Below are positions 47,839 through 64,000 of a DNA stretch of 64,000 nucleotides, one piece after another (positions within the stretch are counted from its first letter, which is position 1; every line of letters starts with the position of its first letter). The stretch spans positions 6,249 to 70,248 of the forward strand of contig CBDCGX010000010.1 of assembly GCA_965216965.1 (NCBI GenBank). The letters run 5' to 3'. The notes under the pieces were generated by a model, which searched no databases, had not been told where the DNA came from, and was given only the letters and a program-made list of their open reading frames with translations. Source of the DNA: Spirochaetia bacterium (lineage in GTDB: Bacteria; Spirochaetota; Spirochaetia; WTKD01; G963693115). Made by a program: the position numbers and the translations under genes.

Positions 47839-47911
47839 GCGAGAATAGCTTAGTTGGTAGAGCGCCACCTTGCCAAGGTGGAGGTCGCGAGTTCGAGCCT
47901 CGTTTCTCGCT
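47839..47911 (+). tRNA. tRNA-Gly(GCC), CCA not encoded
   Basis: GCGAGAA/TTCTCGC acceptor, CCACC-TTGCCAA-GGTGG anticodon arm, GTTCGAG T-loop. Confidence 0.97.
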
Positions 47912-47971: not shown

Positions 47972-49339
47972 ATGTCAGAAATATCTCATAAGATTATAGA
48001 AAAAGGAAATGCACGAATATCTCTTACAATAACGGTCCCGTTGTCTAGAGTTACTGCTGTATATAATACTTCTGTTAAAGAAATAGCTAAGAAAGCACAG
48101 ATAAAGGGATTTAGAAAAGGAAATGTTCCTGTTGCAGTATTAGAAAAGAGATTTGGAGATGCTCTTAAGGCAGATTCTTTTGAGAAGCTTGTTAATGAAT
48201 CGGTGCAGGAAGTGCTCAAAGAAGTTGAGAAAAAACCACTCCCATATGCAAGACCAGAGTTGCAAAAAGAAGATACATTTTCTTTTGATATATCAAAAGA
48301 TTTTATATTTACCATAGAATATGATACTATTCCTTGTATAGAGCCATGCAAGATAGATTCTCTTACTATTTTAGAACCTAAAATAAGAATTACCGATAAT
48401 GATATAGAAGAAGAGCTACGAGGTATACAAGATCGGAATGCTATTACAATAGAGAAACAGGGGGCTATCGCTAATGGCGATGTAGTTAGTATAGCATACA
48501 GCGAATGTGATGAGAAAAAAAATGAAATACACGGGACAAAGCGAGAAAATTATACATTGACTGTTGGGGAAAAGGAACAAAGCGTATACGATATAGGTAA
48601 GGATCTCATTGGAATGTCAAAGGATGAAGAAAAAATTATTACAAAAACATTTTCCAAGGACTATGCATTTAAAGAATATGCAGATAAAACAGTTATTCTT
48701 AAAGTTTTTATAGAAAATGTAAAACAAAGAGATCTTCCCGATATAGATGATGAACTTGCTCAAGACTTTAGTCAAAAATATAAAACACTTGACGATCTAA
48801 AAAAAGATCTCAGGATCCAATTGGGTGAGAGGGCTCAAAAAATTATAGAAGATACACAAGAAAAACAAATAATGAGCTATCTTGTAAAAAATTCAAAGGT
48901 AGAAGTACCCGCATCTGCTGTACAGATGCAATTAGAAAGCTTTTGGCAGAATTTTGTTCGCAGTAATGGCAATAATGCAGAAACAATGCTTGCAGAGCTT
49001 GCTAAAGTAGGAAAAAGTAAGGATATGCTCATGGATTCGTGGAAACAAGATGCAGAAAAACAAGTCATAAGCCAGTTTCTTGTTGCAAAGTTGCGTGAGG
49101 AAGAAAATATAACGTGTACGGACGAAGATGTTATTGAACGAATAAAGTCTGATTGTGAAAAAACGGGAGCAGATTATAAAGAAATAAAGGATTATTATAC
49201 AAAGCACAACCTTATGGAACAAATAAAAGATGACCTTGCACATAAAAAACTTTTTGAAATTTTAAAAAAGCGTACTACTATAAAAAAAGAGGGAGAAAAA
49301 TCTTTTTTACAAATAGTTGAAGGACAAAACAATGAGTAA
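47972..49339 (+). CDS. tig: Trigger factor
   Basis: [10 protein letters not shown] signature, LPDIDDELA; tig-clpP-clpX order. Confidence 0.95.
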
Positions 49340-49979
49340 AAACAAAAACAATAAAAATTATCACAAAGAAGATGTATATATGAACACTGTCGTGCCCATG
49401 GTTCTTGAGCGCTCTGATGGGGTGGAAAGAGCCTTTGATATCTATTCTCGTCTTCTAAAGGAACGAATAATCTTTATTGGTGGTGTAATAGACGATGGTA
49501 TTGCAAACCTTGTTATTGCTCAAATGCTTTTTTTAGAGTCGCTTTCTACTGAGAAACCAATACAGTTATACATTAATAGCGTAGGTGGGTCTGTTACAGC
49601 AGGATTTGCAATTTATGATACAATGCAATACACAAATAGTCCTGTACAAACTATTTGTGTAGGTCAAGCAATATCGATTGCAGCATTGTTATTGGTAGCA
49701 GGGACACCTGAAAGAAGAAAAGCCCTTCCCTCATCACGTATTATGATACATCAACCATGGGGTGGTGTAGAGGGACAGGCAACAGATATTAGCTTACAGA
49801 CGAAAGAAATGTTACGAATAAAACAACTTATTACACATTATTTTGTAAAACATACTGGAAATAAAGAAGAAGTCATATCAAAGGATATTGAGCGGGACTA
49901 TTTTATGTCTCCTCAACAAGCACTTTCATATGGTCTTATAGATGAGATACTTGTGAGGCATGAAAAACAACATGAATGA
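49332..49979 (+). CDS. clpP: ATP-dependent Clp protease proteolytic subunit
   Basis: [18 protein letters not shown] (catalytic Ser), IMIHQP, ERDYFM. Confidence 0.97.
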
Positions 49980-51316
49980 TACTACTATTGAATGCTCTTT
50001 TTGTAGACAGATTGTTACAAACCAACAGGTGATACAGGGAAATAAAGCAATTATATGTAGAAAATGCATCTTATACTGTTCGAGCTTTTTTAAAGAAGAA
50101 GAGCATATAGAAAAAAAGAAGTATGATTTTTTAAAAGAACCACCAACCCCACAAGAAATAAAAAATATTTTTAGATGATTTTGTCGTGGGGCAAGAATAT
50201 GCAAAGAAGGTGCTTGCCGTTTCTGCATATAATCACTATAAGCGAATCTATCATAATAGAATGAATTTTCATAAGAAAGAAGATACAAATCATTTTCCTA
50301 AGGGTCATTATCAATATAAAAAATCATTGCAAAATGACAATGAGGATAAAAAAAAGGATGTACATGAGAATGTAGTCCTTGAAAAGTCTAACATATTGCT
50401 TATTGGTCATACGGGAGTTGGAAAAACCTTACTGGCCAAGACTCTTGCAGATTTTCTTAATGTTCCATTTGCAATAGCTGATGCTACTACACTTACCGAA
50501 GCGGGATATGTAGGTGAGGATGTCGAAAATATACTCCTTAAATTATATCAAGCAGCAGATAAAGATGTGGATGCAACGCAGCAAGGTATTATATTTATAG
50601 ATGAAATAGATAAAATTTCTCGAAAAAGCAAAAATCCTTCTATTACTCGTGATGTATCGGGAGAAGGGGTCCAACAAGCACTACTAAAAATCATAGAGGG
50701 CACTGTTGCTTCTGTTCCCCCGCAAGGTGGAAGAAAACATCCTCACCAACCGATGATACAAATTGATACAAGTAATATATTGTTTATATGCGGGGGAGCT
50801 TTTGTTGGATTAAAAGACATAGTGCTTTCTCGTATAAGTGCCCAGACACTGGGATTTGATAGCGATGTTTCTAATAAGGAATACTCTGACTCAGATATTT
50901 TAAAAAAGATACATCCAGAAGATTTAATCCATTATGGATTTGTTCCTGAGTTTGTAGGACGACTTCCTATTATTGCTTCTCTTGATTCTCATGATGCGAT
51001 AAGTTTACGGAAGATTTTATTAGAACCAAAAAACTCAATAATACGGCAAATGCAACAATTTTTCAAACTAAGCAATGTTGAGCTTGTGTTTGATGACGAT
51101 GCCATTACTACAATTGCCGAAATGTCATTTAGGCGGAATATTGGGGCGCGAGGACTTCGTACAATTATAGAGGAATTATTGCTTGATACCATGTATATAA
51201 TCCCTTCAAATTCTGATGTTAAACGAGTAAGGGTTACCCAAGAAGCAGTTCTAAAGAAGATTGCTCCTTATATTGAATATTCCCAAAGAATAAAAGCTAT
51301 TAAAGACAGTGCATAA
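49972..51316 (+). CDS. clpX: Clp protease ATPase ClpX, frameshift at ~50170 (T5 run)
   Basis: CSFC..CRKC Zn finger; [38 protein letters not shown]; one-base removal gives [13 protein letters not shown]. Confidence 0.95.
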
Positions 51317-51334
51317 TATACCGAAATTATAAAT

Positions 51335-52288
51335 ATGGATCTTCCATTTCTTAACTCTTTTATAACTGTAGACAATGCTGGTGAAAAAAATATACGTTCT
51401 TTGTTGAAACTTTCACATAAGTGTAAAAAAGAAGGCATACAGAAGAAAATGACGAGAAAACAATACCTTCTAGGGAAAACAATTGCACTGCTTTTTGAAA
51501 AACCTTCAACACGAACGAGGGCTTCATTTGAGACTTCTATATCAGAAGAGGGGGGAGGAGCTATTTTTCTCTCAAAAAATGATTTGCATTTAGGAGATAA
51601 GGAGAGTATAGAAGATACCGCACGTGTATTAGGGGGAATGTTTTCTGCCATAGTTTTTAGAGGAAACAAGCAGAATAATTGCGAAATTTTACAGAGAGAG
51701 AGTGGTATTCCTGTTATTAATGCGCTTACAGACACCCACCATCCAACTCAAGCATTAGCAGATATTATGACAATTCAGGAGCATTTTAAAGATTTAAGAA
51801 TAAAAAAAGACTGTATAGTCAGTTTTGTTGGTGATGGGTGCAATAATGTGGCATGTTCGCTTATTACAATATGTGCAATGCTTGGAATACGCATTCATAT
51901 AGCATCATCAAAGCATTACTTCCCATCAAAAGAAACACTTGTTATTGCAAGGCGATATGCGAAAAAGAATAAATCAGAAATACATATGGATGAAGATATA
52001 AAAAAGATGCTTAAGGGAGCTGATGTAGTTTATACTGATACATGGGTCTCTATGGGAGAAAAAGAAAGTAGCGTAAAAATAAAACGATGTAAACCATATA
52101 AAGTTACTCAAGAAGTAATGAAAATGGCAAAAAAAGATGCAATATTTATGCATTGTCTTCCTGCAAAAAGGGGATATGAAGTTTCTGATGAAGTAATTAA
52201 TGGAAAACAATCTCGTGTATGGCAACAAGCAGAAAATAAAAAACACTCTGCAAAGGCTGTATTGCTTGCATGTTTAAAAATTATATAA
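51335..52288 (+). CDS. argF: Ornithine carbamoyltransferase
   Basis: FEKPSTRTR, HPTQALAD, YTDTWVSMG, HCLP. Confidence 0.95.
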   Translation: MDLPFLNSFITVDNAGEKNIRSLLKLSHKCKKEGIQKKMTRKQYLLGKTIALLFEKPSTRTRASFETSISEEGGGAIFLSKNDLHLGDKESIEDTARVLGGMFSAIVFRGNKQNNCEILQRESGIPVINALTDTHHPTQALADIMTIQEHFKDLRIKKDCIVSFVGDGCNNVACSLITICAMLGIRIHIASSKHYFPSKETLVIARRYAKKNKSEIHMDEDIKKMLKGADVVYTDTWVSMGEKESSVKIKRCKPYKVTQEVMKMAKKDAIFMHCLPAKRGYEVSDEVINGKQSRVWQQAENKKHSAKAVLLACLKII

Positions 52289-52378
52289 TTTATAGAGGCT
52301 ATTCTGGTACAGGGGCTTTTGCACAAAATATTGGTGATATAGAGATCATCAATCAAAAATTAAAAGGATTATACGTTG
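52289..52378 (+). pseudogene. Deleted 5' remnant of the hypothetical gene at 59064
   Basis: ggtacagggg cttttgcacaaaatattggtgatatagagatcatcaatcaaaaatta..ttatacg matches 59118-59190. Confidence 0.85.
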
Positions 52379-52400
52379 TTTTTTTGTTCGCAAAGTAAAT

Positions 52401-53645
52401 CTATTTTATATATTTTGAGGGTTTTATATTTTTTATTCTTTGAAAGGAAATATAATTTACTATTCCAAAAACTGCTAGAAAGATTAAAGAAATTTCAATA
52501 AACATCCATAGGTTAAAATGGATTGGCAAATGAGTAGTGATTGTTCTATTAATAGCATTTACTTGAGGTAGAAAATGTGGTTTTGCTGATATTTCCCATG
52601 GTAATTCCATAGATATGTTCTGTTTGCTTAAAACGACTAAGGAGCCGATTGCAAAAACATTCCCTAGCAATAAAGCGATTATTAATAGGAAAACGCTTTC
52701 AGAAATAAATTGCCTCTTTAAATTCTTAAAACTCCATCCGATCATTCGCAAGATTGCAATTTCTTTTTCTCGGGTTTTAAAATTATAACTCACTAGCAAG
52801 CTAAAAATAATTAACAGAATTATTCCCAGAATGATAAACATAATTTTACCTAAAGATGAGACAATCTTAATTTGATCTAATATTTCTTTGTTAAAAGTTT
52901 TCTCGCTGAAAACAATATAATTTTTATTAAGTTTTTTAATTTCTTTTTCTTTGTTTCCTTGCCATTTTGGGTTGGCATCTAAAGCAACAACATTGATAAA
53001 GTTGTTGCTTTTAAATTTATAAATTCTTTGCATTTCAACAGAGCTTAAAATAATTTTTTGAGCTTTATCTAAGTTAAGATAAATATCAGCTGGAATAATA
53101 TTACTACTTAAGTTTGGTTTTAAAATCCCAGCTACTGTAAAACTTTTTTTTCCAAAATCAATTTTCGAATTTAGGTTTAGTTTATTCTTTTGGGCAAAAT
53201 CAGTGGTAATTAAAGCTTGGTTAGTAGACAAATTAAAATCACCTTGTTCTATATTTTGTTTTAAAAGTTTTTGAAAAGTGGAATTATCTGTTTTTATTCC
53301 TAAAACAGTTTTAAAATATTCTTCATCAAAATACCAAAAATAAAGTCCTTGGTCAGAATTTTGAATGAAATCAAGCTGGGAGATTCTAGATAACTCATCT
53401 TGGTAAATTGGTCCATTGGAATGCGGGAAAATAGCGCCAATCATCTGGTCAGGTATTTCTCCTGTTTTTTGTATGATTACACTAACACCAATTTTTTTAA
53501 AAGGAAGAGAAGCAACTTCTGGCAAGGATTTATTTAAGGTTAGTAGCACAGTTGATAATGTGAAATAAACAGTAATGCTTAAAATAAGAATAGTGATTTT
53601 TATTTTGTTGTTTTTACAAAAAGAAATGAAATAACTAAATATCAT
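52401..53645 (-). CDS. ABC transporter permease, FtsX/MacB family
   Basis: TM1 + large extracytoplasmic domain + REKEIAILRMIGWS + 3 TMs. Confidence 0.88.
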   Translation of the reverse strand: MIFSYFISFCKNNKIKITILILSITVYFTLSTVLLTLNKSLPEVASLPFKKIGVSVIIQKTGEIPDQMIGAIFPHSNGPIYQDELSRISQLDFIQNSDQGLYFWYFDEEYFKTVLGIKTDNSTFQKLLKQNIEQGDFNLSTNQALITTDFAQKNKLNLNSKIDFGKKSFTVAGILKPNLSSNIIPADIYLNLDKAQKIILSSVEMQRIYKFKSNNFINVVALDANPKWQGNKEKEIKKLNKNYIVFSEKTFNKEILDQIKIVSSLGKIMFIILGIILLIIFSLLVSYNFKTREKEIAILRMIGWSFKNLKRQFISESVFLLIIALLLGNVFAIGSLVVLSKQNISMELPWEISAKPHFLPQVNAINRTITTHLPIHFNLWMFIEISLIFLAVFGIVNYISFQRIKNIKPSKYIK

Positions 53646-53649
53646 AATA

Positions 53650-54714
53650 TCACAACCTAAAATTTTGGTTTAATAATGCTTCAATTCCTATGTAAGGTAA
53701 AACACTAAAATAAAATATGAGCAAAAAGATCAAACTGGTGAATAGAGAAAATACAATAATTAAAGAAGATTCAAAAAACATCCACTGTCGGGTTTTTTGT
53801 TTTGGCCAGCCAATTGTTTGAAGGATCCTTGTTTGCTTGCCAAGATCTATTTGATTCATTTTTAGAATCCAAAATATCAAAATAAGTGCTAAAAAACTGA
53901 TTCCGAAAGAAAAATAATCTCCAAATTTATAAATTAACCTGTTAAAAGATGATAAGTTTTTTAACAAACGATCTTTGGTTATGATAGAAATATTTGAGAA
54001 AATATTTCTAATTTCTTTTTGTACTTTAGATAACAAAGAAGCATTAGATAAAGATATATAAATTTGATTTATAATGGTTTTTTTTTGGTTGAGTAATGAA
54101 AGTGCTGTTTTATAAGGCATGAAAATTTGTGCATTTGACAAATTGCTTTCTTCTTTAAAATCAACTATACCTACTATTTTATAATCTTGATTATTTATTT
54201 TATATGAAGTGTTTAATTTATACCCAAATAATCTAGAAAAATGCCTTTCTAAAATTACTTCTAGAGCATTATCATTACTAAAAAAATTGCTTTTTGGCAT
54301 TAGCCAGTGTTCAATTTTTCGTAAACCGATTAGTGGATCGTTGACGTTTAGCCCAATAATTGTACGGTTGTTTTTAATATCAAATTGCCAAAGAACTAAA
54401 GAACTGGATGTTTCTTTTATTCCTTTAATATTGGAAAGCCTTTTTAAGACGTCATCTTTGTACAATGATTCTAGACTAAAAGGTTCAATTACTCCGGTTG
54501 TTTTTATCTGGTTAGCGTTTTTATTATTTTTATCCCATTGTAGAATGATTTCTGTTTTTAAGGAATTAAGCGGAGCATCAGCAAACTTTTTAATTTTGTT
54601 TATGAATAAAAAGGAAGTAAAAGCGAGAAAGAATAAAAAAGTAATCAATATTGTAATTAACGTGTTTTTTTTCCAATAGAAAAATAAATTTCTTAAAACA
54701 ATTCTTTTAATCAT
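53650..54714 (-). CDS. ABC transporter permease, FtsX/MacB family
   Basis: TM1, periplasmic domain (YKIVGIV, IFMPY), ILQTIGW. Confidence 0.82.
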   Translation of the reverse strand: MIKRIVLRNLFFYWKKNTLITILITFLFFLAFTSFLFINKIKKFADAPLNSLKTEIILQWDKNNKNANQIKTTGVIEPFSLESLYKDDVLKRLSNIKGIKETSSSLVLWQFDIKNNRTIIGLNVNDPLIGLRKIEHWLMPKSNFFSNDNALEVILERHFSRLFGYKLNTSYKINNQDYKIVGIVDFKEESNLSNAQIFMPYKTALSLLNQKKTIINQIYISLSNASLLSKVQKEIRNIFSNISIITKDRLLKNLSSFNRLIYKFGDYFSFGISFLALILIFWILKMNQIDLGKQTRILQTIGWPKQKTRQWMFFESSLIIVFSLFTSLIFLLIFYFSVLPYIGIEALLNQNFRL

Positions 54715-55199
54715 TTTTGATATTTATCAGGATTAGATAGTATTTTTTCTAAATAATCATAATTCCAAGAACCTTCCAAGGTTGGTACAAAAACATTGTC
54801 TTTTGGGAAATTTTTTAAAATTATTTCTTGTCCATCAATTAAAAAAGTATTTGTTCCTTTGATAAAAATTGCTACCGGAATATGGCCAAGTAAATTATAA
54901 TCTTTAATCTTTTGTTTGTTGTTTTTGTTATAAAAGTCATACTCTTTTAATTTATATTCTGGGAATTTTTTCAAAATACTTTCTATTCTTTTTTTGATTG
55001 GATTAATTGTCGAATGTGGAAGATAAAAAAACTCTACTAAGTTTTTTTCAACTTTTTGAGATTCGTTATTAGTGGATAAATTCTGAATAGTAGAATTATT
55101 TATTGGATGATTATTTTGATTTGATAATTTCCAAGAAACTATTCCTCCGATAAGAATAGCAATGAGAATAGAAATAATAAATAGATTTTTTTTCTTCAT
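54711..55199 (-). CDS. Membrane-anchored extracytoplasmic hypothetical protein
   Basis: N-terminal TM; overlaps both neighbours by 4 nt; YLPH, GHIPVAIFI, NFP..GSW; no Cys. Confidence 0.75.
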   Translation of the reverse strand: MKKKNLFIISILIAILIGGIVSWKLSNQNNHPINNSTIQNLSTNNESQKVEKNLVEFFYLPHSTINPIKKRIESILKKFPEYKLKEYDFYNKNNKQKIKDYNLLGHIPVAIFIKGTNTFLIDGQEIILKNFPKDNVFVPTLEGSWNYDYLEKILSNPDKYQK

Positions 55200-55855
55200 A
55201 ATGCCTCTAAATTTTGTTTTGTTAATTGATAATTTTTTTGCATTTTCCGTGCAATATCATTATCATGTGTAATAATAATAAAAGAAGTGGATAATTCTTG
55301 ATGTAATGTGTTAAAAAGCCCCATAATATTTCCCGATGTTGCTTCGTCTAAATTTCCTGTTGGTTCATCGGCTAAAACTATTTTTGGTTTTCCTACTAAA
55401 CTACGAGCAATTGCTACTCTTTGTTTTTCGCCCCCGCTTAGATTGTCAACTGTTTCTGTTAGTTTATTTTCAAGTTCTACAAGTTTAATCATATTTTCAA
55501 CAATTTTCTTTTTGTTTTCTTTTTTCATATCTTTTCTGGGATGAATAGCTAAGTATACATTATCAAACACTGATAGTGACGGAATGATTTTGAAATCCTG
55601 AAAAACAATACCGATATTTAGAAGGCGAAAATGTGCCAATTCTTCTTCATTCAAATTAGTAATTTCTTTATTTTCAAAGAATATCTTCCCCTCATCAGGC
55701 TTTACTAATCCTGCTAAAATAGAAAGTAAAGTTGTTTTACCGACTCCTGATTTTCCAATAATACTGATAAATTCTTTTTCTCCAATTGAGAAATTAATGT
55801 TTTTTAAAACTTCTTGAGTATTATATTTTTTTGAAATTGATTTTAATTTTAGCAT
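55196..55855 (-). CDS. ABC transporter ATP-binding protein (LolD/MacB type)
   Basis: GKSGVGKTT, LSGGEKQRVAIAR, LADEPTGNLD, ITHD. Confidence 0.96.
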   Translation of the reverse strand: MLKLKSISKKYNTQEVLKNINFSIGEKEFISIIGKSGVGKTTLLSILAGLVKPDEGKIFFENKEITNLNEEELAHFRLLNIGIVFQDFKIIPSLSVFDNVYLAIHPRKDMKKENKKKIVENMIKLVELENKLTETVDNLSGGEKQRVAIARSLVGKPKIVLADEPTGNLDEATSGNIMGLFNTLHQELSTSFIIITHDNDIARKMQKNYQLTKQNLEAL

Positions 55856-55856
55856 G

Positions 55857-56132
55857 TTATTTTTTATAAAGATTAATAATTTGTTTTAGTTTTTTAATTT
55901 TTTCTTCTGACACTTTTTTATTGGCTATAAAATCATTTAAAATAAAGCCTTCTAAAGTTTTAGCACGTAAGGAGTCAAACGATTTTACAACTGAAGTTGT
56001 TAGTTGTGCGATTTTTCCACAACATTCATCTTGTTCAATATATTTCTTAAGCGTTTTAAATTGCCCTTGAATACGATTTAAATGATTAATAGTTTGTTTG
56101 CGTTTTTCTTTTATTTCTTTTGTAATTTTCAT
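55857..56132 (-). CDS. CsoR/RcnR-family metal-sensing repressor
   Basis: HLNRIQGQ..IEQDECC..Q; 91 aa; GGAG RBS. Confidence 0.82.
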   Translation of the reverse strand: MKITKEIKEKRKQTINHLNRIQGQFKTLKKYIEQDECCGKIAQLTTSVVKSFDSLRAKTLEGFILNDFIANKKVSEEKIKKLKQIINLYKK

Positions 56133-56148
56133 GAAACACTCCAGTATC

Positions 56149-56201
56149 TATACCCCTATACCTATATTATATAGGATAGGAAAATTAATTTATTTTGTCA
56201 A
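56149..56201 (-). promoter_or_regulatory. Promoter and candidate operator of the CsoR-ABC operon
   Basis: Minus strand TTGACA-N17-TATCCT; inverted repeat CCTAT(A)CCTATA-TTA-TATAGGATAGG at 56155-56180; adjacent TATACCCC tract. Confidence 0.6.
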
Positions 56202-56240
56202 TAAGTTTTAATAAATATTTAGTTTTAATTTATTTTTGTA

Positions 56241-56374
56241 ATATTGATGAAAACACTAGTAACTAAAGAATACTCCGTAGGATATATTACTCGTTATTTG
56301 AATGAAAATGATATTTTAATCAAAAATAAAAAATATGGCATAGGAATACTCTTTCTAAAATATTATTGAGTTAA
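56241..56374 (+). pseudogene. Possible C-terminal relic of a serine recombinase
   Basis: ILMKTLVTKEYSVGYITRYLNENDILIKNKK then, after a -1 shift, WHRNTLSKILLS*; resembles S..IA..LN..GI....W.......IL. Confidence 0.45.
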
Positions 56375-56411
56375 GCTTAACAAAGTATGCAGTATAGTGT
56401 ATGCTAAACTC

Positions 56412-56778
56412 ATGGATCAGATATTAAAGAAATATCAGACATTATCCCAAAAATGCAGATTCAGAATAATGCATCTTCTAATCAAAGTAGAATCTCCGTT
56501 ATGTATTTGTGAACTCATGGACGTTCTTCATAAACCTCAATATAAAATTTCCAGGTGTTTATCGATACTTAAGGAAGCAAATCTTATTAATGAAGAACAC
56601 GACGGGCGACTTTTAATGCATAGCTCTGATTTATCAGAGCCTTTAAATGAAAATCTATTTGACAGTGTTCAATTAGTAAGCATAAAAGAAAATACAGATT
56701 TAATCGTTGATATTAATACACTGAATGACAGATTAGCTTTAAGAAAAAAATGGAAAGGTTGTAACTTACAACAAATGA
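56412..56778 (+). CDS. arsR: ArsR/SmtB-family repressor; C-terminus probably frameshifted at an A7 run (56744-56750)
   Basis: RFRIMHLL, PLCICEL alpha3 site, ISRCLSILKEANLI; removing one A ends the protein RKNGKVVTYNK*. Confidence 0.82.
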
Positions 56779-56797
56779 TATTTTTTTATATTTTTAC

Positions 56798-56819
56798 TAT
56801 GCATGGATTTGCATGCATA
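56798..56819. promoter_or_regulatory. Candidate ArsR operator
   Basis: TATGCATG-GATTTG-CATGCATA inverted repeat between arsR and the permease, next to a GGAG RBS. Confidence 0.55.
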
Positions 56820-56971
56820 TGGAGTATTAATTATGAAGAACTAGGGAAACGCATCAGAAAACGAAATTGTATGCTACTGCTTGTAAATTGTTAATGTAAT
56901 TAAAATGAAAAATATGAATGAAAAATATCTAATCAAAATTGGGCTATATTATCAATTGTTTGAGGTGAGAT

Positions 56972-57946
56972 ATGTTTGTGATATTTAGTAAACTTGCTGA
57001 TTTAATCATTTTTGACTTATTTGCATTAACTAAAGGAACAAAGCTAGCTAATGCCCTTCATTTCTTTGTTGAAGATACAACAAAGATATTCTTTTTAATT
57101 ATAATAATGATTTATATTATTGCGATTTTGAGAGCATCTTTAAATATGGAGTTTATTCGAACCCATTTACAAGTACGTTCTAAATGGTTTGGATATGGAG
57201 CTGCATCTGCATTTGGTGCGGTTACCCCCTTTTGTAGTTGTTCTAGTATTCCAATGTTTTTGGGTTTTACTTCGGTTGGGATACCAACTGGTGTCACGCT
57301 TGCTTTTCTAATAACCTCGCCTCTTATTAATGAGGTAGCTGTTGTTTTATTAGGTTCCCTCCTAGGTTGGAAATTTACTGCAGTATATATTACTGCAGGT
57401 CTTTCTGTAGGAATAATTGGAGGTTTTCTTTTTGACTATCTTAAAGCAGATAAGCAGTTACAGCCGCTTGCATCAAAAATACGTGATGATGAAACGACTG
57501 TAAATGAGAATATTGTGCAACAAAAATTATCTATGCACGATCGCCATCTCTTTGCAAAACAAGAAACTATTGAAATTTTTAGACATATTTGGAAGTGGGG
57601 TATCTTTGGTGTTGGAGTCGGTGCTGCATTACATGGATTTGTACCAGAAAGCTGGATTTCAAACCATCTTGGTAATGGAACGTGGTGGTCAGTACCTATA
57701 GCTGTTCTTATGGGAATACCACTTTATAGTAATGCTTCAGGGATGATTCCCGTTGTTGAAACTCTACTTGCTAAAGGACTTCCTGTGGGTACAGCTCTTG
57801 CCTTAATGATGTCAACCGTTGGAGCAAGCTTTCCCGAGTTCATTTTGTTAAAAAAAGTTTTAAAGCCAAAGCTTTTAGCTTGGTTATTTATTTACTTTCT
57901 AATATCATTTACAATGATTGGGTGGCTAATTAATTTTTTATTTTAA
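56972..57946 (+). CDS. arsP: ArsP/DUF318-family permease
   Basis: VTPFCSCSSIP, FLITSPLINE, HGFVP, GIPLYSNA, GTALALMM; multi-TM. Confidence 0.88.
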   Translation: MFVIFSKLADLIIFDLFALTKGTKLANALHFFVEDTTKIFFLIIIMIYIIAILRASLNMEFIRTHLQVRSKWFGYGAASAFGAVTPFCSCSSIPMFLGFTSVGIPTGVTLAFLITSPLINEVAVVLLGSLLGWKFTAVYITAGLSVGIIGGFLFDYLKADKQLQPLASKIRDDETTVNENIVQQKLSMHDRHLFAKQETIEIFRHIWKWGIFGVGVGAALHGFVPESWISNHLGNGTWWSVPIAVLMGIPLYSNASGMIPVVETLLAKGLPVGTALALMMSTVGASFPEFILLKKVLKPKLLAWLFIYFLISFTMIGWLINFLF

Positions 57947-57957
57947 AAGAGAAAAAC

Positions 57958-58293
57958 ATGAGTGAAAAAAAGAAGGATGTGTTTTCAGTGGGCAATAAAT
58001 TTAATCTTTGCTTGTTCAAATGCTGCTGGTGTTGAAGGTATATCCGATCAAATAGTAAGAAAAATGACAAAGGACAGATCTGAAAAAAAATTAGCAATAG
58101 TTATGGATGCCCTGTTGTTTGTACAAAAAAGTTGCTTGAGAGAAACGGATTTAATGAGCTCAAATATGTGGAACTGATAAGTATTGGTTTTAAGAAAGAA
58201 AGAACGCCAATCTCGGAAGAAGCGATAAATACTGCTTCTGAGAAAGGCAAAGAGTTATTTTACTGTTATAATAAATATAAAGAATTATTATGA
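57958..58293 (+). pseudogene. DGC-domain (putative Zn-binding) protein, frameshifted with an internal deletion
   Basis: LIFACSNAAGVEGISDQIVRKM in one frame, GCPVVCTKKLLERNGF..IGFKKERTP in another; the usual central segment appears missing. Confidence 0.7.
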
Positions 58294-58520
58294 TAATTAA
58301 AATTTTAGGTAGTGGATGTTTGAAGTGTAAAATGCTGGAGAAAAACACCAGAAAAGCGGTTGATGAGTCTGGGATAGATGCTGAAGTGATAAAAGTAACG
58401 GATCTTAACGACATTATGAGTTATGGAGTAATGGTAACACCTGCTTTAGTTATAGATGAAGAAGTAAAATCGGTCGGGAAGATCCTATCGCCGGATCAAA
58501 TTATTTCATTTCTCAAATAA
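58290..58520 (+). CDS. Small thioredoxin-family redox protein (MTH895-like)
   Basis: IKILGSGCLKC, YGVMVTPALVID; 76 aa. Confidence 0.92.
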   Translation: MIIKILGSGCLKCKMLEKNTRKAVDESGIDAEVIKVTDLNDIMSYGVMVTPALVIDEEVKSVGKILSPDQIISFLK

Positions 58521-58591
58521 AGTAAAGAAACAATGATGGTAGAAATATTCTCACTACATTATTATCTCTATGCCATTTTCAAGTATTCCAG

Positions 58592-59193
58592 TAAACGAGT
58601 AGGGGCTACCCAGGAAGCAGTTCTAAAGAAGATTGCTCCTTAAATATTGAATGTTTTCAAAGAATAAAAGCTATTAAAGACAGTGAGTAATATGCCGAAA
58701 TTATAAATATGGATCTTCCATTTCTTTGCTCTTTTATGACTGTAGATAATGCTGGCGAAAAAAACATACGTTTTTTCTTGAAGCTTTCACATAAGTGCAA
58801 ATATAAGGAGCAGTATGAAGATAAAACGATGTAACCCATATAAAGTTACTCAAGAAGTAATAAAAATGGCAAAAAAAGATGCAATATGTATACATTGTCT
58901 TCCTGAAAAAAGAGACTATGAGGTTCCCGATGAAGTAATCGATGGGAAACAATATCGTGTATGGCAACACGCAGAAAATAAAAAACACTTTGCAAAGGCT
59001 GTATTGCTTGCATGTTTATAAATAATATAATATAATGAAATGTATATTTTTGAAGGAGAGGATATGAAGAAAATATTTTTAAAAATTTATATAGCTATAT
59101 GTATAGTGACTACCTTTGGTACAGGGATAGTTTTTGCACAAAGTATTGGTGATATAGAAATTATCAATCAGAAATTAGAAGAATTATACGCTA
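58592..59193 (+). repeat. Right copy of direct duplication (clpX 3' remnant + deleted argF + start of intact gene 59064)
   Basis: taaacgagta..ctaaagaagattgctcctta..atggatcttccatttctt..ataaaacgatgtaa..gcatgttta matches the left copy. Confidence 0.92.
58709..59021 (+). pseudogene. argF: argF remnant with a ~630-bp internal deletion
   Basis: MDLPFLCSFMTVDNAGEK joined out of frame to KIKRCNPYKVTQEV..HCLP; STRT and HPTQ motifs lost. Confidence 0.9.
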
Positions 59194-59516
59194 CTGAATA
59201 TGGATATGTTGCTCGTTATGCTACATCCGATTTATATAGAGGGGAATTATATATTCCACGAGCGTGGTTTGTTTCTATAGATAAAAAAGAGGGAGATCCA
59301 GATATTTATGCACAACAAGTAACAACTGCAGCAGACTATTCTCTCCCATATCTTAGACTTGTCTATGTTGATAAAGTACTCAAAAGAATTCGACTGATAG
59401 TACCGAAGGAATATTCTAGAAGTGGTGTTCCTCCTTATAAAGGAAGATTGACTAAGGAAGAGCTTAAAGTGAAATTTGATGAACAAGCTGCAAGCGGTGT
59501 TATTACAGTACGCTAG
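59064..59516 (+). CDS. Hypothetical exported protein
   Basis: GGAGAGG RBS, signal peptide ending VFA/Q. Confidence 0.75.
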   Translation: MKKIFLKIYIAICIVTTFGTGIVFAQSIGDIEIINQKLEELYATEYGYVARYATSDLYRGELYIPRAWFVSIDKKEGDPDIYAQQVTTAADYSLPYLRLVYVDKVLKRIRLIVPKEYSRSGVPPYKGRLTKEELKVKFDEQAASGVITVR

Positions 59517-59527
59517 GCTACAGTAGC

Positions 59528-60532
59528 GTGTTACAAAAGCCATTAGAAGATAATTTAAAAAAACTTAAGAAGTTTATAAGTTCGTATCGGATTTTTTATG
59601 TCATGGGACATGAGAAACCTGATGGGGATTGCATTGGATCTCAGCTTGCGTGTGCAGGGTTGCTTAAGAAGCTTAACAAAAAAGTACACATACTTTCTTC
59701 GGGGCCTTTTTCTGATGCTGTATCTCAATTATATAGAGCATTCTTTCCAATGTATCCTCCTTCAGAGGATGTTGTAAGGGCTCATAAAGGTGATGCTGCC
59801 GTTATTTGTGTTGATACGTCCTCTCCTAGTCGATTAGGTCATTTCTTTTTGCCACTTAAGGATCTTCCTTTAGCGGTTATAGATCATCATGCCGAAGGAG
59901 AGTCATATGGAGAGGTGAAGTATATAGATCAAACGGCCTCTTCAAATACCCTTCTCATATATAGACTTTTTAAAGAGTATAGAATAGTTCCTACAAAAGA
60001 AGATGCATATTTTATATTGTTGGGTCTCCTTACCGACACTCAATTTTTCCGTTTTGTGTCTGCAAAAAACACCGAGCCTTTTGAGGTTGCTGCAAAAATG
60101 GTAAGGTTAGGAGTATCGCCACGAGAGATATATAGGCAAATCGAATTTGGATACACGTTTTTATCAAGAAAGATTCTTGCAACTATACTCAATAGAGCTA
60201 CTCGTGTAAATAATAATCGAATTGTGCTTACGCATATAAGACATGGTGATTATATGTATAAAGATGATATTCCTCAGTCATATGAAGTATACCAAATACT
60301 TCAAGGAGTACAAAAGATAGAGATCGTTGTATATATTCATGAAGATGTGAGAGATGATGGTAGTGTAGTATGCAAGATAGGATTGCGATCTCAAAGAATA
60401 GTAGATGTTGCAAAAATAGCAAGATCATTTAATGGGGGAGGGCATACTAAGGCATCGGGTTTTATGATAGCAAAGCCACTTTCTGAGGTATGGGATTTTC
60501 TTAAGAAGTATTTTGATGAGCTTTCTATATGA
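59528..60532 (+). CDS. nrnA: DHH/DHHA1 phosphoesterase (NrnA-like nanoRNase/pAp phosphatase)
   Basis: HEKPDGDCIGS, VDT, IDHH, GLLTDT, GGGH. Confidence 0.88.
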   Translation: MLQKPLEDNLKKLKKFISSYRIFYVMGHEKPDGDCIGSQLACAGLLKKLNKKVHILSSGPFSDAVSQLYRAFFPMYPPSEDVVRAHKGDAAVICVDTSSPSRLGHFFLPLKDLPLAVIDHHAEGESYGEVKYIDQTASSNTLLIYRLFKEYRIVPTKEDAYFILLGLLTDTQFFRFVSAKNTEPFEVAAKMVRLGVSPREIYRQIEFGYTFLSRKILATILNRATRVNNNRIVLTHIRHGDYMYKDDIPQSYEVYQILQGVQKIEIVVYIHEDVRDDGSVVCKIGLRSQRIVDVAKIARSFNGGGHTKASGFMIAKPLSEVWDFLKKYFDELSI

Positions 60533-61061
60533 ATGATAATGTGTAATAAAAAACAGTAGAGTAACTGTTCTTATTAGAGAACTCCAAAAGAAGAAGGAAA
60601 GAAAGAAAGCAATAGGAGTAAAGAGAAATAACAATAACAAGCCAATCTTTCCAATTAGGGGGCAACATAGAAGCAGGCTGTTTTTATAGTCTTCATCACA
60701 ATAATAAATATTGCTAACCAAAATTTTAAAACATATTCTTTATGCTGTTGATCCTGATGTGTATCAAACCTATGGTCTTGAATATATCATCTCTGTTCCA
60801 TTGTCCAGTTTATTTGAACAATACTTTGATTTTTTTGGGGAGGTTTTATAAAGTTAGGAAATTTGTATATCTTTTTTGTTATTTTTTGATATGTTTTTAA
60901 TTAATCTAATTTTTTTATTGTAATGCGATTTAATATTATGTTAACTTGCTATTTTAGAAGTCTTTTTACCAATTTTGAAAATGTTAATGGGTTTCTTAAC
61001 AGTTTTTTGTATCCTTGCAAAATATTCTTCTCCGTAATTCAAAATGCATTGCTAATCGTAG

Positions 61062-61134
61062 CTCCCCCAGTTGGACTCGAACCAACGACCCGATGGTTAA
61101 CAGCCATCTGCTCTACCAGCTGAGCTACAGGGGA
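61062..61134 (-). tRNA. tRNA-Asn(GTT), CCA not encoded
   Basis: Reverse complement TCCCCTGTAGCTCAGCTGGTAGAGCAGATGGCTGTTAACCATCGGGTCGTTGGTTCGAGTCCAACTGGGGGAG. Confidence 0.97.
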
Positions 61135-61202
61135 ATGTATATATATAATTGTTGCATATACTATCTTTTATGTCAATATCTTTGTACAATACTACGTACT
61201 AT

Positions 61203-63920
61203 TTATAATTTCGCCTTATGAATTTCTTTTATTTTCACGTTGTATTCTTTGTCATTAATGGTAAAACTACATAGTTCGTTTAGCTTCCTTTTGTATAACT
61301 TCTTTCCAATTGGTGAAAGATATGATATTATATTCTTTTCAGGTGAAGATTCCCAGGGACCGAGTATGGTAAACTCTTTACGAGCCTTATCGTTGACATT
61401 TTCAAAAATGATGCGAGTTCCAAAGCTCACAAAATCTGTAGAAAGATTATCTTCTTTGAAGATTTTTGCCTGCTCAAGCTCTTGTTTTAAAAGGGCTGCT
61501 CTGGTATTAAGCATTTCCTGATGTTCAAGTGCTGCTTTATATTCTGCATTTTCTTTAAGGTCTCCAAAGGAGCGTGCTTTTTCAATTTCTTTGCTGTTTT
61601 CTGGAACTTCTATCTCATGCAAATGCTGTAGCTCCTTTTGTTTTTTCTTGTATGATTTTTCAAGAGTGAGAAATCCTGTAGAAGAAGTTACATCATCAAT
61701 ATCAAATCCATCATTAAATTCAAAATCAGGGAAGCGTTTTTCAATAATTTCTCGGATAGCGAGTATATGCGATGGAATAATGTCACTTAGCTGACTCAAG
61801 AGAGAATAAAGATATTGTATGTCGTCGAGTTTTTTTGTTTTAAAAACAGTGGTAATTCTATCTGTTGTAAAGAGATAATCTTCTACATGTTGCATAATTC
61901 GTTTGTTTTGAGGAGTATTATGTTTGTTTTGGATATCTCGTGTTATTAGAATGGCTGTTTTAATGATATCTGCATATATTTTAAACACATCTACATCCTC
62001 AAGCCATTTTTTGCTATGCTGGGTAACAGTAAACCAAATAAAAGCATTTTTGGATGATTGACAGTTTTGTTGGAGAGATATATATATTTCTTTTAAAAAA
62101 TCATATTCCTCTTCTTTTTCGAGCAATTTTACTATGTCTGTGGTATAGTGATGCGGAATAAGTTCTATATATAATTCTTTCCAATTGGGACATAAGTCTT
62201 TGATGAGTATAAAGAGCCAGTTTTTGTAATCGGTAATTTGTAGTGTTTGTATAATTGTTTTTAAATTTTTTATTGTTAGTTCTGGTATTATTGTTGCGAG
62301 TGAAAGTTCTAGCTTTTGTTGTGCTGTTTTCATATAATTGCAGACATCATTACATATAAAAAGTGCGTGTACATAGTCTTCTGTAAATGGAAGTTCAGTG
62401 AAAGTATTTGTTTTTGTTTTTAAGTGTGCATTACAATATTCAAACATTTGCCAAAATGCATCAATATATTCATTATCGTCTAAAGAATTAGTTTTTAATG
62501 ATTTTTTAAAGCATTTTGCTTTTCCTACAAACTTTTCTTCCATTCTAAAAAGAGAAAGTACTTTGTCACCATGTCCAATGGGGGTGTTAGAATATGTATA
62601 TTGATCGCTTGTATTTGAGAGCATTTTAAAAGATAAGTTATTTGCAAAGTGCTTTCGTGCTTTTAGGCTCCACGAATTCCATTCTTTTTCGGTTAGTAAT
62701 TGTGGTGTTAGTTCGGATTTTATTGTTTTCATGTTTGCAGAGCCGAGACTTTTTACTATGCGAGTAAGCGTCCACAAAGGATCAGAAAGAATTTTCTCTC
62801 GAAGTTTCTCTTTTGGAAGTACGCTTGAGAGTACTCTAAAGTGGTTCTTTGGTAAGGGTTCAAGAGAGGATACTGCCATTCCAATATCCATTTGATGATT
62901 TCGTTTTTTTGCAAAATCTATGCATAAATAACGGTGCGTTGTTTCTTTTATGCGTCCTATGCCCCATTTATTGTGGTAGACAAAACTATTGGGAGAAAAT
63001 GCGATGTGTTTCTCAAAATCCGAAATTGCCTCGTTAACATTTCTCCAGTTTTGCGAGAGGTTAGACATTCTAATAAAATCTTCAAGTTTGGGGTTGCTTT
63101 TATATTTCTTTCGGTAGACATTAACGAGTTCTTCTCTGTATTGTTCATTGTTTGGTTTTAGTTTAAGTAAGTGTTTTAATACAGTTATTTGTAGATTGAA
63201 ATTATTTGGATGTTGTTCGTATATGGAATCTTTTAAAAGGCATAACAGTTCTTCTGATTTTTCTCCAGCTTGGTTGCGCTCTAGGTTTTGGGTGAACGAA
63301 AAATAAAATTCGGTATCAAGAGAATCATACTGTAGGAGCGTTTTCCATATGTTTTTGGCATTGTCATAATCTTTTTTTAAGAGATAGCGGTTGATAGCTT
63401 TTTTATAGTCTTTTATAGCTTCTTTGATAGTATCATTGTTTTTTGCTTTATGAGATGCTAATTTCACAAGAATATCTGCTTCTTCAAAATCTTCATGTAT
63501 TATAGCTTCCCATATGGGCATAAGTTTTTCGGTTTGTTTGTTTTCTTCATATACGCTGACCAACACTCGTAGAGCATTAAGGCTATTATTGAATGTAAGA
63601 ATTGCTTTTGCAAGTGTTTCCACGCAGTCCCATTTTTTTCCTTCAATAAATATATTGATTAGCTGCATCATGTACATATCGTCAATTGAATTTTGTTCAA
63701 GACGGAACATACCTGCAACGTATAGCCCATAAATGCTATGCTTGTTGTTTTTAAGATGTTCTTTGGCAAACTCAAATAAGGATTCTTTTTCTTTTTCTGA
63801 AAGTGTTTTCAGTAATTCATTTGCTTCGTGAAAAGAATCTTTGGAAAACGACTGGAAATCAGCTCTTGTCCATTGTTCTGTATATACAAGTTTTTTTACT
63901 TGTTCTAATGTTGTACTCAC
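61203..63920 (-). CDS. greA: Transcription elongation factor GreA, long spirochaete/chlamydia type
   Basis: C-terminal ARSFGDLKENAEYKAA, ILGPWES, ISYLSPIG; ~750-aa N-terminal extension. Confidence 0.93.
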   Translation of the reverse strand: MSTTLEQVKKLVYTEQWTRADFQSFSKDSFHEANELLKTLSEKEKESLFEFAKEHLKNNKHSIYGLYVAGMFRLEQNSIDDMYMMQLINIFIEGKKWDCVETLAKAILTFNNSLNALRVLVSVYEENKQTEKLMPIWEAIIHEDFEEADILVKLASHKAKNNDTIKEAIKDYKKAINRYLLKKDYDNAKNIWKTLLQYDSLDTEFYFSFTQNLERNQAGEKSEELLCLLKDSIYEQHPNNFNLQITVLKHLLKLKPNNEQYREELVNVYRKKYKSNPKLEDFIRMSNLSQNWRNVNEAISDFEKHIAFSPNSFVYHNKWGIGRIKETTHRYLCIDFAKKRNHQMDIGMAVSSLEPLPKNHFRVLSSVLPKEKLREKILSDPLWTLTRIVKSLGSANMKTIKSELTPQLLTEKEWNSWSLKARKHFANNLSFKMLSNTSDQYTYSNTPIGHGDKVLSLFRMEEKFVGKAKCFKKSLKTNSLDDNEYIDAFWQMFEYCNAHLKTKTNTFTELPFTEDYVHALFICNDVCNYMKTAQQKLELSLATIIPELTIKNLKTIIQTLQITDYKNWLFILIKDLCPNWKELYIELIPHHYTTDIVKLLEKEEEYDFLKEIYISLQQNCQSSKNAFIWFTVTQHSKKWLEDVDVFKIYADIIKTAILITRDIQNKHNTPQNKRIMQHVEDYLFTTDRITTVFKTKKLDDIQYLYSLLSQLSDIIPSHILAIREIIEKRFPDFEFNDGFDIDDVTSSTGFLTLEKSYKKKQKELQHLHEIEVPENSKEIEKARSFGDLKENAEYKAALEHQEMLNTRAALLKQELEQAKIFKEDNLSTDFVSFGTRIIFENVNDKARKEFTILGPWESSPEKNIISYLSPIGKKLYKRKLNELCSFTINDKEYNVKIKEIHKAKL

Positions 63921-64000
63921 TCATTACACCTCAGTTTTTTATAATCTGCACGCATGTAGATTATAATAATTATATTATCATTTGCTATTATAGCGTGTTT

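Follow-up and report, generated by a model that had tools for sequence, protein, structure and literature searches.

A 6.2-kb exporter island bracketed by a decaying host duplication at the clpX-argF locus of a Spirochaetia genome

In the genome of a Spirochaetia bacterium, nine open reading frames (ORFs) stand between two copies of a stretch of ordinary host genes, and the question that they raise is how such a block could be gained with no integrase or transposase of its own. We have analysed a window of 64,000 nt (contig CBDCGX010000010.1 of assembly GCA_965216965.1; positions count from the first letter of this stretch), in which the block, here called the island, interrupts the conserved locus tig-clpP-clpX-argF-hyp-nrnA, hyp being a 158-aa gene without an assigned family. 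A first-pass annotation of the same letters had described an island bracketed by a host duplication, and this observation was confirmed in nearly every detail. We give about an even chance to the reading that a foreign 6.2-kb block of two cassettes was added to the locus by insertion-duplication, with the crossover of one circle as the simplest route.

The duplicated host segment and its junctions

A repeat search over positions 48000-64000, followed by a comparison of both copies at fixed offsets, revealed that a host segment made of the clpX 3' end, argF and the 5' part of hyp has two copies in direct orientation, one at 51220-52378 and the other at 58592-59193. Their identity is ~90% overall, a match far beyond chance, and they bracket the insert as follows:

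51220..52378, + strand: left copy of the host segment, with the last ~32 clpX codons, a spacer, full argF and a dead stub of the 158-aa gene
52379..58591: insert (island), 6,213 bp, two exporter cassettes back to back, without mobility genes
58592..59193, + strand: right copy of the host segment, with a dead clpX 3' stub, an argF remnant and the intact start of the 158-aa gene
51321..51352, + strand, equal to 58695-58726: a 32-mer covering the argF start codon, the sole exact word of at least 31 nt common to both copies (maximal exact matches)

The similarity falls into four co-linear blocks:

Block 1: left 51220-51273, right 58592-58645, 93% identity
Block 2: left 51270-51427, right 58644-58801, 90% identity
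Block 3: left 52067-52292, right 58809-59034, 89% identity
Block 4: left 52317-52375, right 59132-59190, 90% identity

The successive left-right offsets of these blocks are 7372, 7374, 6742 and 6815. Such steps indicate a 2-bp indel in the right clpX tail, a net 632 bp missing from the right argF and ~67 bp missing from the left hyp stub. At fixed offset, the homology starts abruptly at 51220/58592 and ends at ~52378/59193, with chance-level matches only past either limit. The longest perfect identity remaining between the copies is 32 bp.

The boundary genes are reciprocal. The left copy has the whole clpX 3' end and a whole argF but only a stub of hyp, whereas the right copy has hyp whole and clpX as a stub. 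In the right argF a net 632 bp is absent (offset 7374 vs 6742) and the frame is broken: the first 31 codons and the final ~74 are fused in different frames, an early stop is present, and conserved residues near the HCLP-x-x-R-G stretch are lost. The right clpX stub carries the 2-bp indel and an early stop. The left stub of the 158-aa gene (~52289-52378) lacks ~67 bp with the ribosome-binding site, the start codon and the first codons, and is cut at the junction. The word AAAAAGAA lies at both endpoints of the argF deletion (51426 and 52059), with a third occurrence at 51962. Of these features, the first-pass annotation had claimed the direct orientation of the two segments, the deleted left stub, the right clpX stub, the ~630 bp lost from the right argF, the whole third gene and the microhomology at the deletion endpoints. 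It had also taken the left clpX and argF as intact, which holds for argF (317 aa, full) and fails for clpX, which in this assembly is split by a +1 frameshift near 50166-50172.

We have compared the region 50600-59800 with k-mer contigs assembled independently from two public runs (X1 and X2). Both runs belong to a single sample, which is probably the one that the assembly came from. The left junction lies inside single k-mer contigs, 51323-55376 (with one differing letter) and 51500-55376. On the right, a single k-mer contig, 55348-58724, contains the junction in both runs and extends 133 nt past the joint. Since single contigs bridge both novel joints, the joints exist in the reads and were not invented by the assembler; the concern that unspanned junctions would betray a chimeric assembly was thus dispelled. 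The k-mer contigs also showed extra joints and loose ends inside the island, with depths of 26-136 and short 88% matches typical of other abundant organisms; these were set aside.

The ancestral site and the island cargo

We have assigned gene families by Pfam and NCBIfam profile searches and compared the gene order of the locus with that of five relatives, the closest species-level genomes being only ~70% identical at the nucleotide level. The host genes around the island are:

47972-49339: trigger factor (tig)
49317-49979: ClpP
49960..51316, + strand: clpX, left functional-looking copy (Pfam AAA_2 and ClpB_D2-small), two ORFs in the assembly
51335-52288, + strand: argF (ornithine carbamoyltransferase), left full copy, 317 aa (TIGR00658, 361 bits vs a cut-off of 280.85)
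59040-59516, + strand: intact 158-aa gene (hyp), without family, right flank of the ancestral site
59528-60532, + strand: DHH/DHHA1 nrnA-like gene, right flank of the ancestral site

The two same-genus genomes (G001 and G002) have the order tig-clpP-clpX-hyp-nrnA, with argF missing, and two same-family genomes (G003 and G005) have tig-clpP-clpX-argF-hyp-nrnA. In a further family member (G004), clpX-argF is followed nearby by an inverted hyp-nrnA, a rearranged order. The insert-free clpX-(argF)-hyp-nrnA site is therefore contiguous in four of the five relatives, and no island gene was found between clpX and hyp in any of the five. The absence of island genes from the site in the relatives implies that the single-copy arrangement is ancestral and that insert and duplication are derived, so that the empty site which the first-pass annotation had suggested looking for does exist. 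Conspecific genomes were not found; a search of metagenome contigs with ArgF gave 80 loci, the best at 49% amino acid identity, and none of them could serve to map a crossover or to provide an empty site within the species.

As a separate observation, argF between clpX and the 158-aa gene is missing in G001 and G002 (loci L014 and L013) and present in G003, G004 and G005. The gene has apparently disappeared from this locus more than once, paralleling the decay of the second argF copy here.

The island holds nine ORFs with gene-free spacers of only 22, 264, 77, 112 and 71 bp. Unless stated otherwise, families are Pfam/NCBIfam assignments:

52401..56132, - strand: cassette 1, five genes, GC 25-28%
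55857-56132, - strand: CsoR/RcnR/FrmR-family repressor (cassette 1)
55196-55855, - strand: ABC ATPase (cassette 1)
54711-55199, - strand: 162-aa protein without a Pfam, NCBIfam or PHROGs match (cassette 1)
53650-54714, - strand: FtsX/MacB-type permease (cassette 1)
52401-53645, - strand: FtsX/MacB-type permease, outer (cassette 1)
56397..58520, + strand: cassette 2, four genes
56397-56894, + strand: ArsR/SmtB-family regulator (cassette 2)
56972-57946, + strand: PF03773 (ArsP_1) permease (cassette 2)
57962-58177, + strand: 71-aa ORF (cassette 2)
58290-58520, + strand: MTH895/ArsE thioredoxin-like protein (cassette 2)

Judged by comparison with other genomes, the island is foreign and composite, with two putative metal- or toxicant-responsive exporter cassettes that are each found alone elsewhere. 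The GC content is 25-28% over cassette 1 vs 33-36% in the flanks. The five genes of cassette 1 occur in identical order in two contigs of metagenome-assembled genomes, L098 (2153-5902) and L099 (3801-7544), which are labelled as other phyla (Atribacterota and the Thermus/Deinococcus group). The identity is 52-73% at the amino acid level and ~70% at the nucleotide level over 3.85 kb; cassette 2 is missing there. This homology sets in with the stop codon of the outer permease, which is separated from the left junction by 22 bp. Conversely, a regulator-permease-thioredoxin cassette without cassette 1 is present in three of 40 relatives (G013, G016 and G021, same class), with ~56% amino acid identity for the permease and 37-59% for the thioredoxin-like protein. 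Cassette 2 was found in none of the five same-family genomes. The 71-aa ORF has a 50%-identical partial match (L103 1124-1231) in the corresponding cassette of one same-class genome, and may be a real small gene of cassette 2.

We have looked for signs of a mobile element in the island and at its ends. Pfam and NCBIfam searches of the nine island ORFs revealed no integrase, transposase or recombinase domain and no replication, partition, mobilisation or phage domain, and PHROGs gave no match for five small proteins (three island ORFs and two from the right flank). No tRNA stands at either junction, the nearest being at 47839 and 61061, and none of the six inverted-repeat pairs found connects the island ends. 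Both ends are plain novel joints without a repeat signature. This agrees with the earlier statement that a tRNA target and an intact integrase or transposase are absent. A plasmid search with the island DNA yielded nothing beyond 312 nt that matched a permease gene at 67%, and no plasmid covered more than 5% of the island. A search of viral contigs with the permease gave no relative. Promoter-like sites were not enriched (40 vs 44.5 in shuffles) and are not used as evidence.

Three standard sources of such a block were set aside. A transposon or insertion sequence (IS) would bring a transposase and paired terminal inverted repeats, of which there are none, and a short target-site duplication, where the duplication here is 1.16 kb. 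For a site-specific integrative island or prophage there is no recombinase domain and no tRNA at the junctions, and the repeats are 1.16 kb of host genes in place of short att sequences. A plasmid or episome does not fit island ORFs among which there is no replication, partition or mobilisation gene.

The frameshift in the left clpX bears on the state of the locus. It separates a 72-aa zinc-finger ORF (49960-50178) from a 376-aa AAA+ body (50186-51316) and consists of an extra base in a T5 (or the adjoining A5) run; the two parts share one frame in the five relatives. It may be a homopolymer error in a low-coverage assembly, or a real pseudogene or split gene, and it qualifies any statement that no host function was lost here.

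Farther to the right in the window, a 905-aa protein (61203-63920, - strand) has GreA/GreB N- and C-terminal domains confined to its last ~150 residues, preceded by a long N-terminal extension. Long GreA forms exist in spirochaetes.

Divergence between the copies

The two copies differ by ~10%, and such a difference could have been present when the segment arrived or have accumulated afterwards. We have compared them over 154 aligned codons (462 sites) and used the five relatives to polarise the replacements. In all, 21 synonymous and 27-28 non-synonymous changes separate the copies, which corresponds to proportions of synonymous and non-synonymous differences (pS and pN) of 0.23 and 0.072 and to a pN/pS of 0.31-0.33. 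There are 38 transitions and 11 transversions over these sites, which bears out the earlier description of scattered substitutions that are mostly transitions. Decay has fallen mainly on the dead copies. Of the 17 replacements that could be polarised, 15 have the ancestral residue in the live copy and the derived one in the dead copy.

clpX (live copy left): live copy ancestral at 3, dead copy ancestral at 0
argF (live copy left): live copy ancestral at 10, dead copy ancestral at 1 (aa 289)
hyp (live copy right): live copy ancestral at 2, dead copy ancestral at 1 (aa 51)

We have then simulated the pN/pS expected under three histories, with K80-like mutation, the observed transition bias and an omega of 0.1 for live copies over the same number of sites:

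No difference at the event, with one copy live and the other dead thereafter: median 0.38 (5-95% range 0.24-0.65)
Half allelic divergence and half decay: median 0.19 (5-95% range 0.12-0.31)
Donor allele only: median 0.07 (5-95% range 0.03-0.13)

The probability of at least 27 non-synonymous changes with at most 21 synonymous ones was 0.34 for copies identical at birth and at most 0.001 for both other models. Together, the polarised replacements and the pN/pS indicate that the ~10% divergence is mostly post-event decay and not a donor-strain allele. With the divergence read as post-event decay (~7-9% of sites per dead copy), the event is old. The first-pass annotation had proposed this kind of comparison and had raised the donor-strain allele as what a synonymous excess would imply; the observed 0.33 lies outside the donor-only range, and the replacements sit on the dead copies, so that this idea is not supported. 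Its view of the stubs as later deletions holds in part. Later events are limited to the two deletions (632 bp in argF, ~67 bp in the hyp stub), the 2-bp indel and the substitutions, whereas the clpX and hyp end stubs are truncations produced by the event itself.

Routes of insertion and the state of the locus

The preferred account begins with a non-replicating circle that would have carried the cargo beside 1.16 kb of clpX'-argF-hyp' DNA taken from this lineage or from one almost identical to it. A single recombination of this circle with the chromosome via the host RecA pathway would give clpX-argF-hyp' / island / 'clpX-argF-hyp-nrnA, with one intact copy of each host gene kept. The clpX and hyp end stubs would be truncations from the capture of the fragment. 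The redundant and truncated copies would then decay, slippage between the AAAAAGAA repeats taking 632 bp from the right argF, with further losses in the form of ~67 bp off the left hyp stub, the 2-bp indel, early stops and changes at ~7-9% of the sites of each dead copy. The analysis shows the duplication, the derived insert with its foreign composite cargo, the lack of mobility genes, the reality of the junctions and the bias of decay towards the dead copies, whereas a circle, its one crossover and the origin of the homologous DNA that it carried are what we infer.

The process has a documented parallel in E. coli, where incoming DNA circularises and then undergoes a single crossing-over, according to PMC3240628. 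The locus resembles the Campbell-type integrants made with suicide vectors in its direct duplication, its intact and truncated boundary genes, the absence of an element-encoded recombinase and the presence of RecA. It differs from them in being natural and old and in belonging to an uncultured spirochaete-like genome, with a circle that is inferred and with copies that have diverged by ~10% and lost 632 and ~67 bp. The Campbell-type integration put forward by the first-pass annotation fits the anatomy (direct repeats, reciprocal intact and truncated genes, an empty site), but its circle is a proposal, and a one-step duplicative insertion gives an equal product.

Homology-facilitated illegitimate recombination, which PMC3240628 and PMC5361080 define by one homologous anchor and one illegitimate joint, was considered and rejected: both island ends are illegitimate, and host DNA was duplicated, not deleted. 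PMC5361080 proposes this mechanism for the displacement of effector-immunity modules of the type VI secretion system in Vibrio cholerae. Those modules, as described there, are like the island in placing foreign genes beside conserved ones without a recombinase and in leaving dead host-gene remnants. In contrast, the V. cholerae mechanism replaces or deletes recipient DNA in that description and would predict no 1.16-kb flanking duplication.

Several points weigh against the circle crossover. RecA is encoded in the genome (443 bits, over the cut-off), as are ComEC and DprA, but these proteins have matches in 14, 10 and 11 of 14 control genomes, respectively (10 over the cut-off for DprA); being common in the controls, they show only that the route is open. 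No circle or excision product was seen, nor any conspecific genome, whether carrying the island or lacking it. The account needs two illegitimate joints (hyp'/island and island/'clpX) plus a crossover, whereas a one-step insertion needs the joints only, and it does not explain why a stretch of host DNA should share one circle with two unrelated cassettes. The simple simulation is compatible with allelic differences of a few percent that predate the event. Finally, the k-mer contig graph has no link across the shared 32-mer, so that the integrated topology is supported by the assembly alone; the graph is also compatible with a circular or tandem form, the loop between the two 32-mers is deeper than the flanks, and both points weaken the earlier suggestion that the island is locked in.

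The best-surviving alternative, which we regard as possible although clearly less probable, is a duplicative insertion in one step, with no circle involved. Here a linear piece of 6.2 kb would have been joined by two illegitimate joints (microhomology or end-joining), at 52378 in hyp and at 51220 in clpX, on sister chromosomes or at a replication fork, or an unequal interchromatid exchange would have been triggered by the incoming DNA; the 1.16 kb between the joints would thereby become duplicated around the insert. This reaches an equal product in fewer steps, requires copies that were near-identical at birth, as they appear to have been, and fits two junctions that are plain joints. It also has a precedent in S. 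pneumoniae, in which transformation-triggered unequal crossing-over between sister chromatids yields tandem duplications (PMC3784515). However, a circle with same-lineage DNA would likewise yield copies that started out identical, and a check for microhomology at the joints would need a donor sequence, of which none is available. The merodiploids documented in PMC3784515, moreover, use pre-existing repeats and span ~100-900 kb, far more than the 1 kb duplicated here around foreign DNA. They share with the present locus a duplication made by host recombination that frees one gene copy to decay, and differ in that theirs arise between IS-derived repeats and ours is 1.16 kb of unique host DNA around a foreign insert. 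The circle crossover and the one-step insertion appear equally economical, and sequence alone cannot tell them apart.

A rather unlikely alternative concerns topology. The integrated form might not be the sole or true one, and the population might hold a clpX-argF-delta-hyp-nrnA chromosome together with a 7,374-bp circle ('clpX, full argF, hyp' and the island), or a tandem amplification in part of its cells. The k-mer contigs break exactly at the shared 32-mer, ending at 51350 and 58724 and starting at 51323 and 58697, and the 32-mer forms a separate 32-nt node with a depth of 9. Two paths are possible across this node, one giving the integrated form and the other an empty chromosome (clpX, argF-delta, hyp) plus a 7,374-bp circle or tandem unit. 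The depths of the adjoining contigs were:

Loop contig, left part: 5.51 (X1), 6.54 (X2)
Loop contig, right part: 6.0 (X1), 7.86 (X2)
Left flank contig: 2.8 (X1), 2.91 (X2)
Right flank contig: 3.97 (X1), 4.47 (X2)

The 7,374-bp loop (51323-58724) thus has ~1.4-1.7x the depth of the longer (right) flank contig in both runs, and the node depth of 9 is close to one flank plus one loop contig on each side (2.8 + 6.0; 5.51 + 3.97). The excess is suggestive of an additional circular or tandem copy. Against this, the two flanks themselves differ ~1.4-fold at depths of 3-4, so that coverage is overdispersed and the loop excess is of about similar size, and X1 and X2 represent a single sample. Both copies are threaded in one contig of the assembly, and none of the other contigs of the genome carries the alternative join. 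Genes for replication, partition or mobilisation are absent from the loop, and RecA-mediated exchange is expected to be rare between copies that diverge by ~10% and share no identical stretch longer than 32 bp. We consider it equally doubtful that the 7,374-bp unit is still dynamic, as a partly excised circle or a tandem amplification via the last 32-bp block of identity, which overlaps the argF start.

It is improbable that the circle, or a homology-facilitated integration, brought the segment from a different strain or species and that the ~10% difference is mainly allelic. The higher pS than pN and the preponderance of transitions would fit such an origin, but both simulated histories with a donor allele fall short of the observed pN/pS, and the replacements lie on the dead copies and are not spread evenly across both. 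Least probable of all is a remnant of a site-specific integrative element or transposon that has since lost its recombinase: small islands with extensive imperfect direct repeats that excise and integrate with no recombinase of their own are known, such as H47 of E. coli (PMC3191183), but this is a loose analogue, as the H47 repeats are described there as attachment sites that exchange within short identity segments independently of homologous recombination, and the repeat here is 1.16 kb of ordinary duplicated host genes, with no recombinase remnant, little non-coding room, no inverted repeats at the island ends, no tRNA target, no PHROGs match and no viral relative of the permease.

Returning to insertion-duplication, nothing at this locus departs from textbook recombination. 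The process itself is textbook genetics, of which the locus is a real, old and well-preserved example. What our analysis adds is that the divergence between the copies reflects decay rather than a foreign allele, together with the possible presence of the 7.4-kb unit in more than one copy or form.

The locus thus offers a clean and datable natural case of gene gain by host recombination without an integrase or transposase. It also makes the ageing of the scar visible, as the reciprocal decay of redundant copies steadily erases the homology able to reverse the event. Tools keyed to integrases, tRNAs or short attachment repeats would overlook such an island. If the 7,374-bp unit were indeed dynamic, it would be a recombinase-free, amplifiable cassette driven by host recombination, carrying metal exporters and the only working argF.

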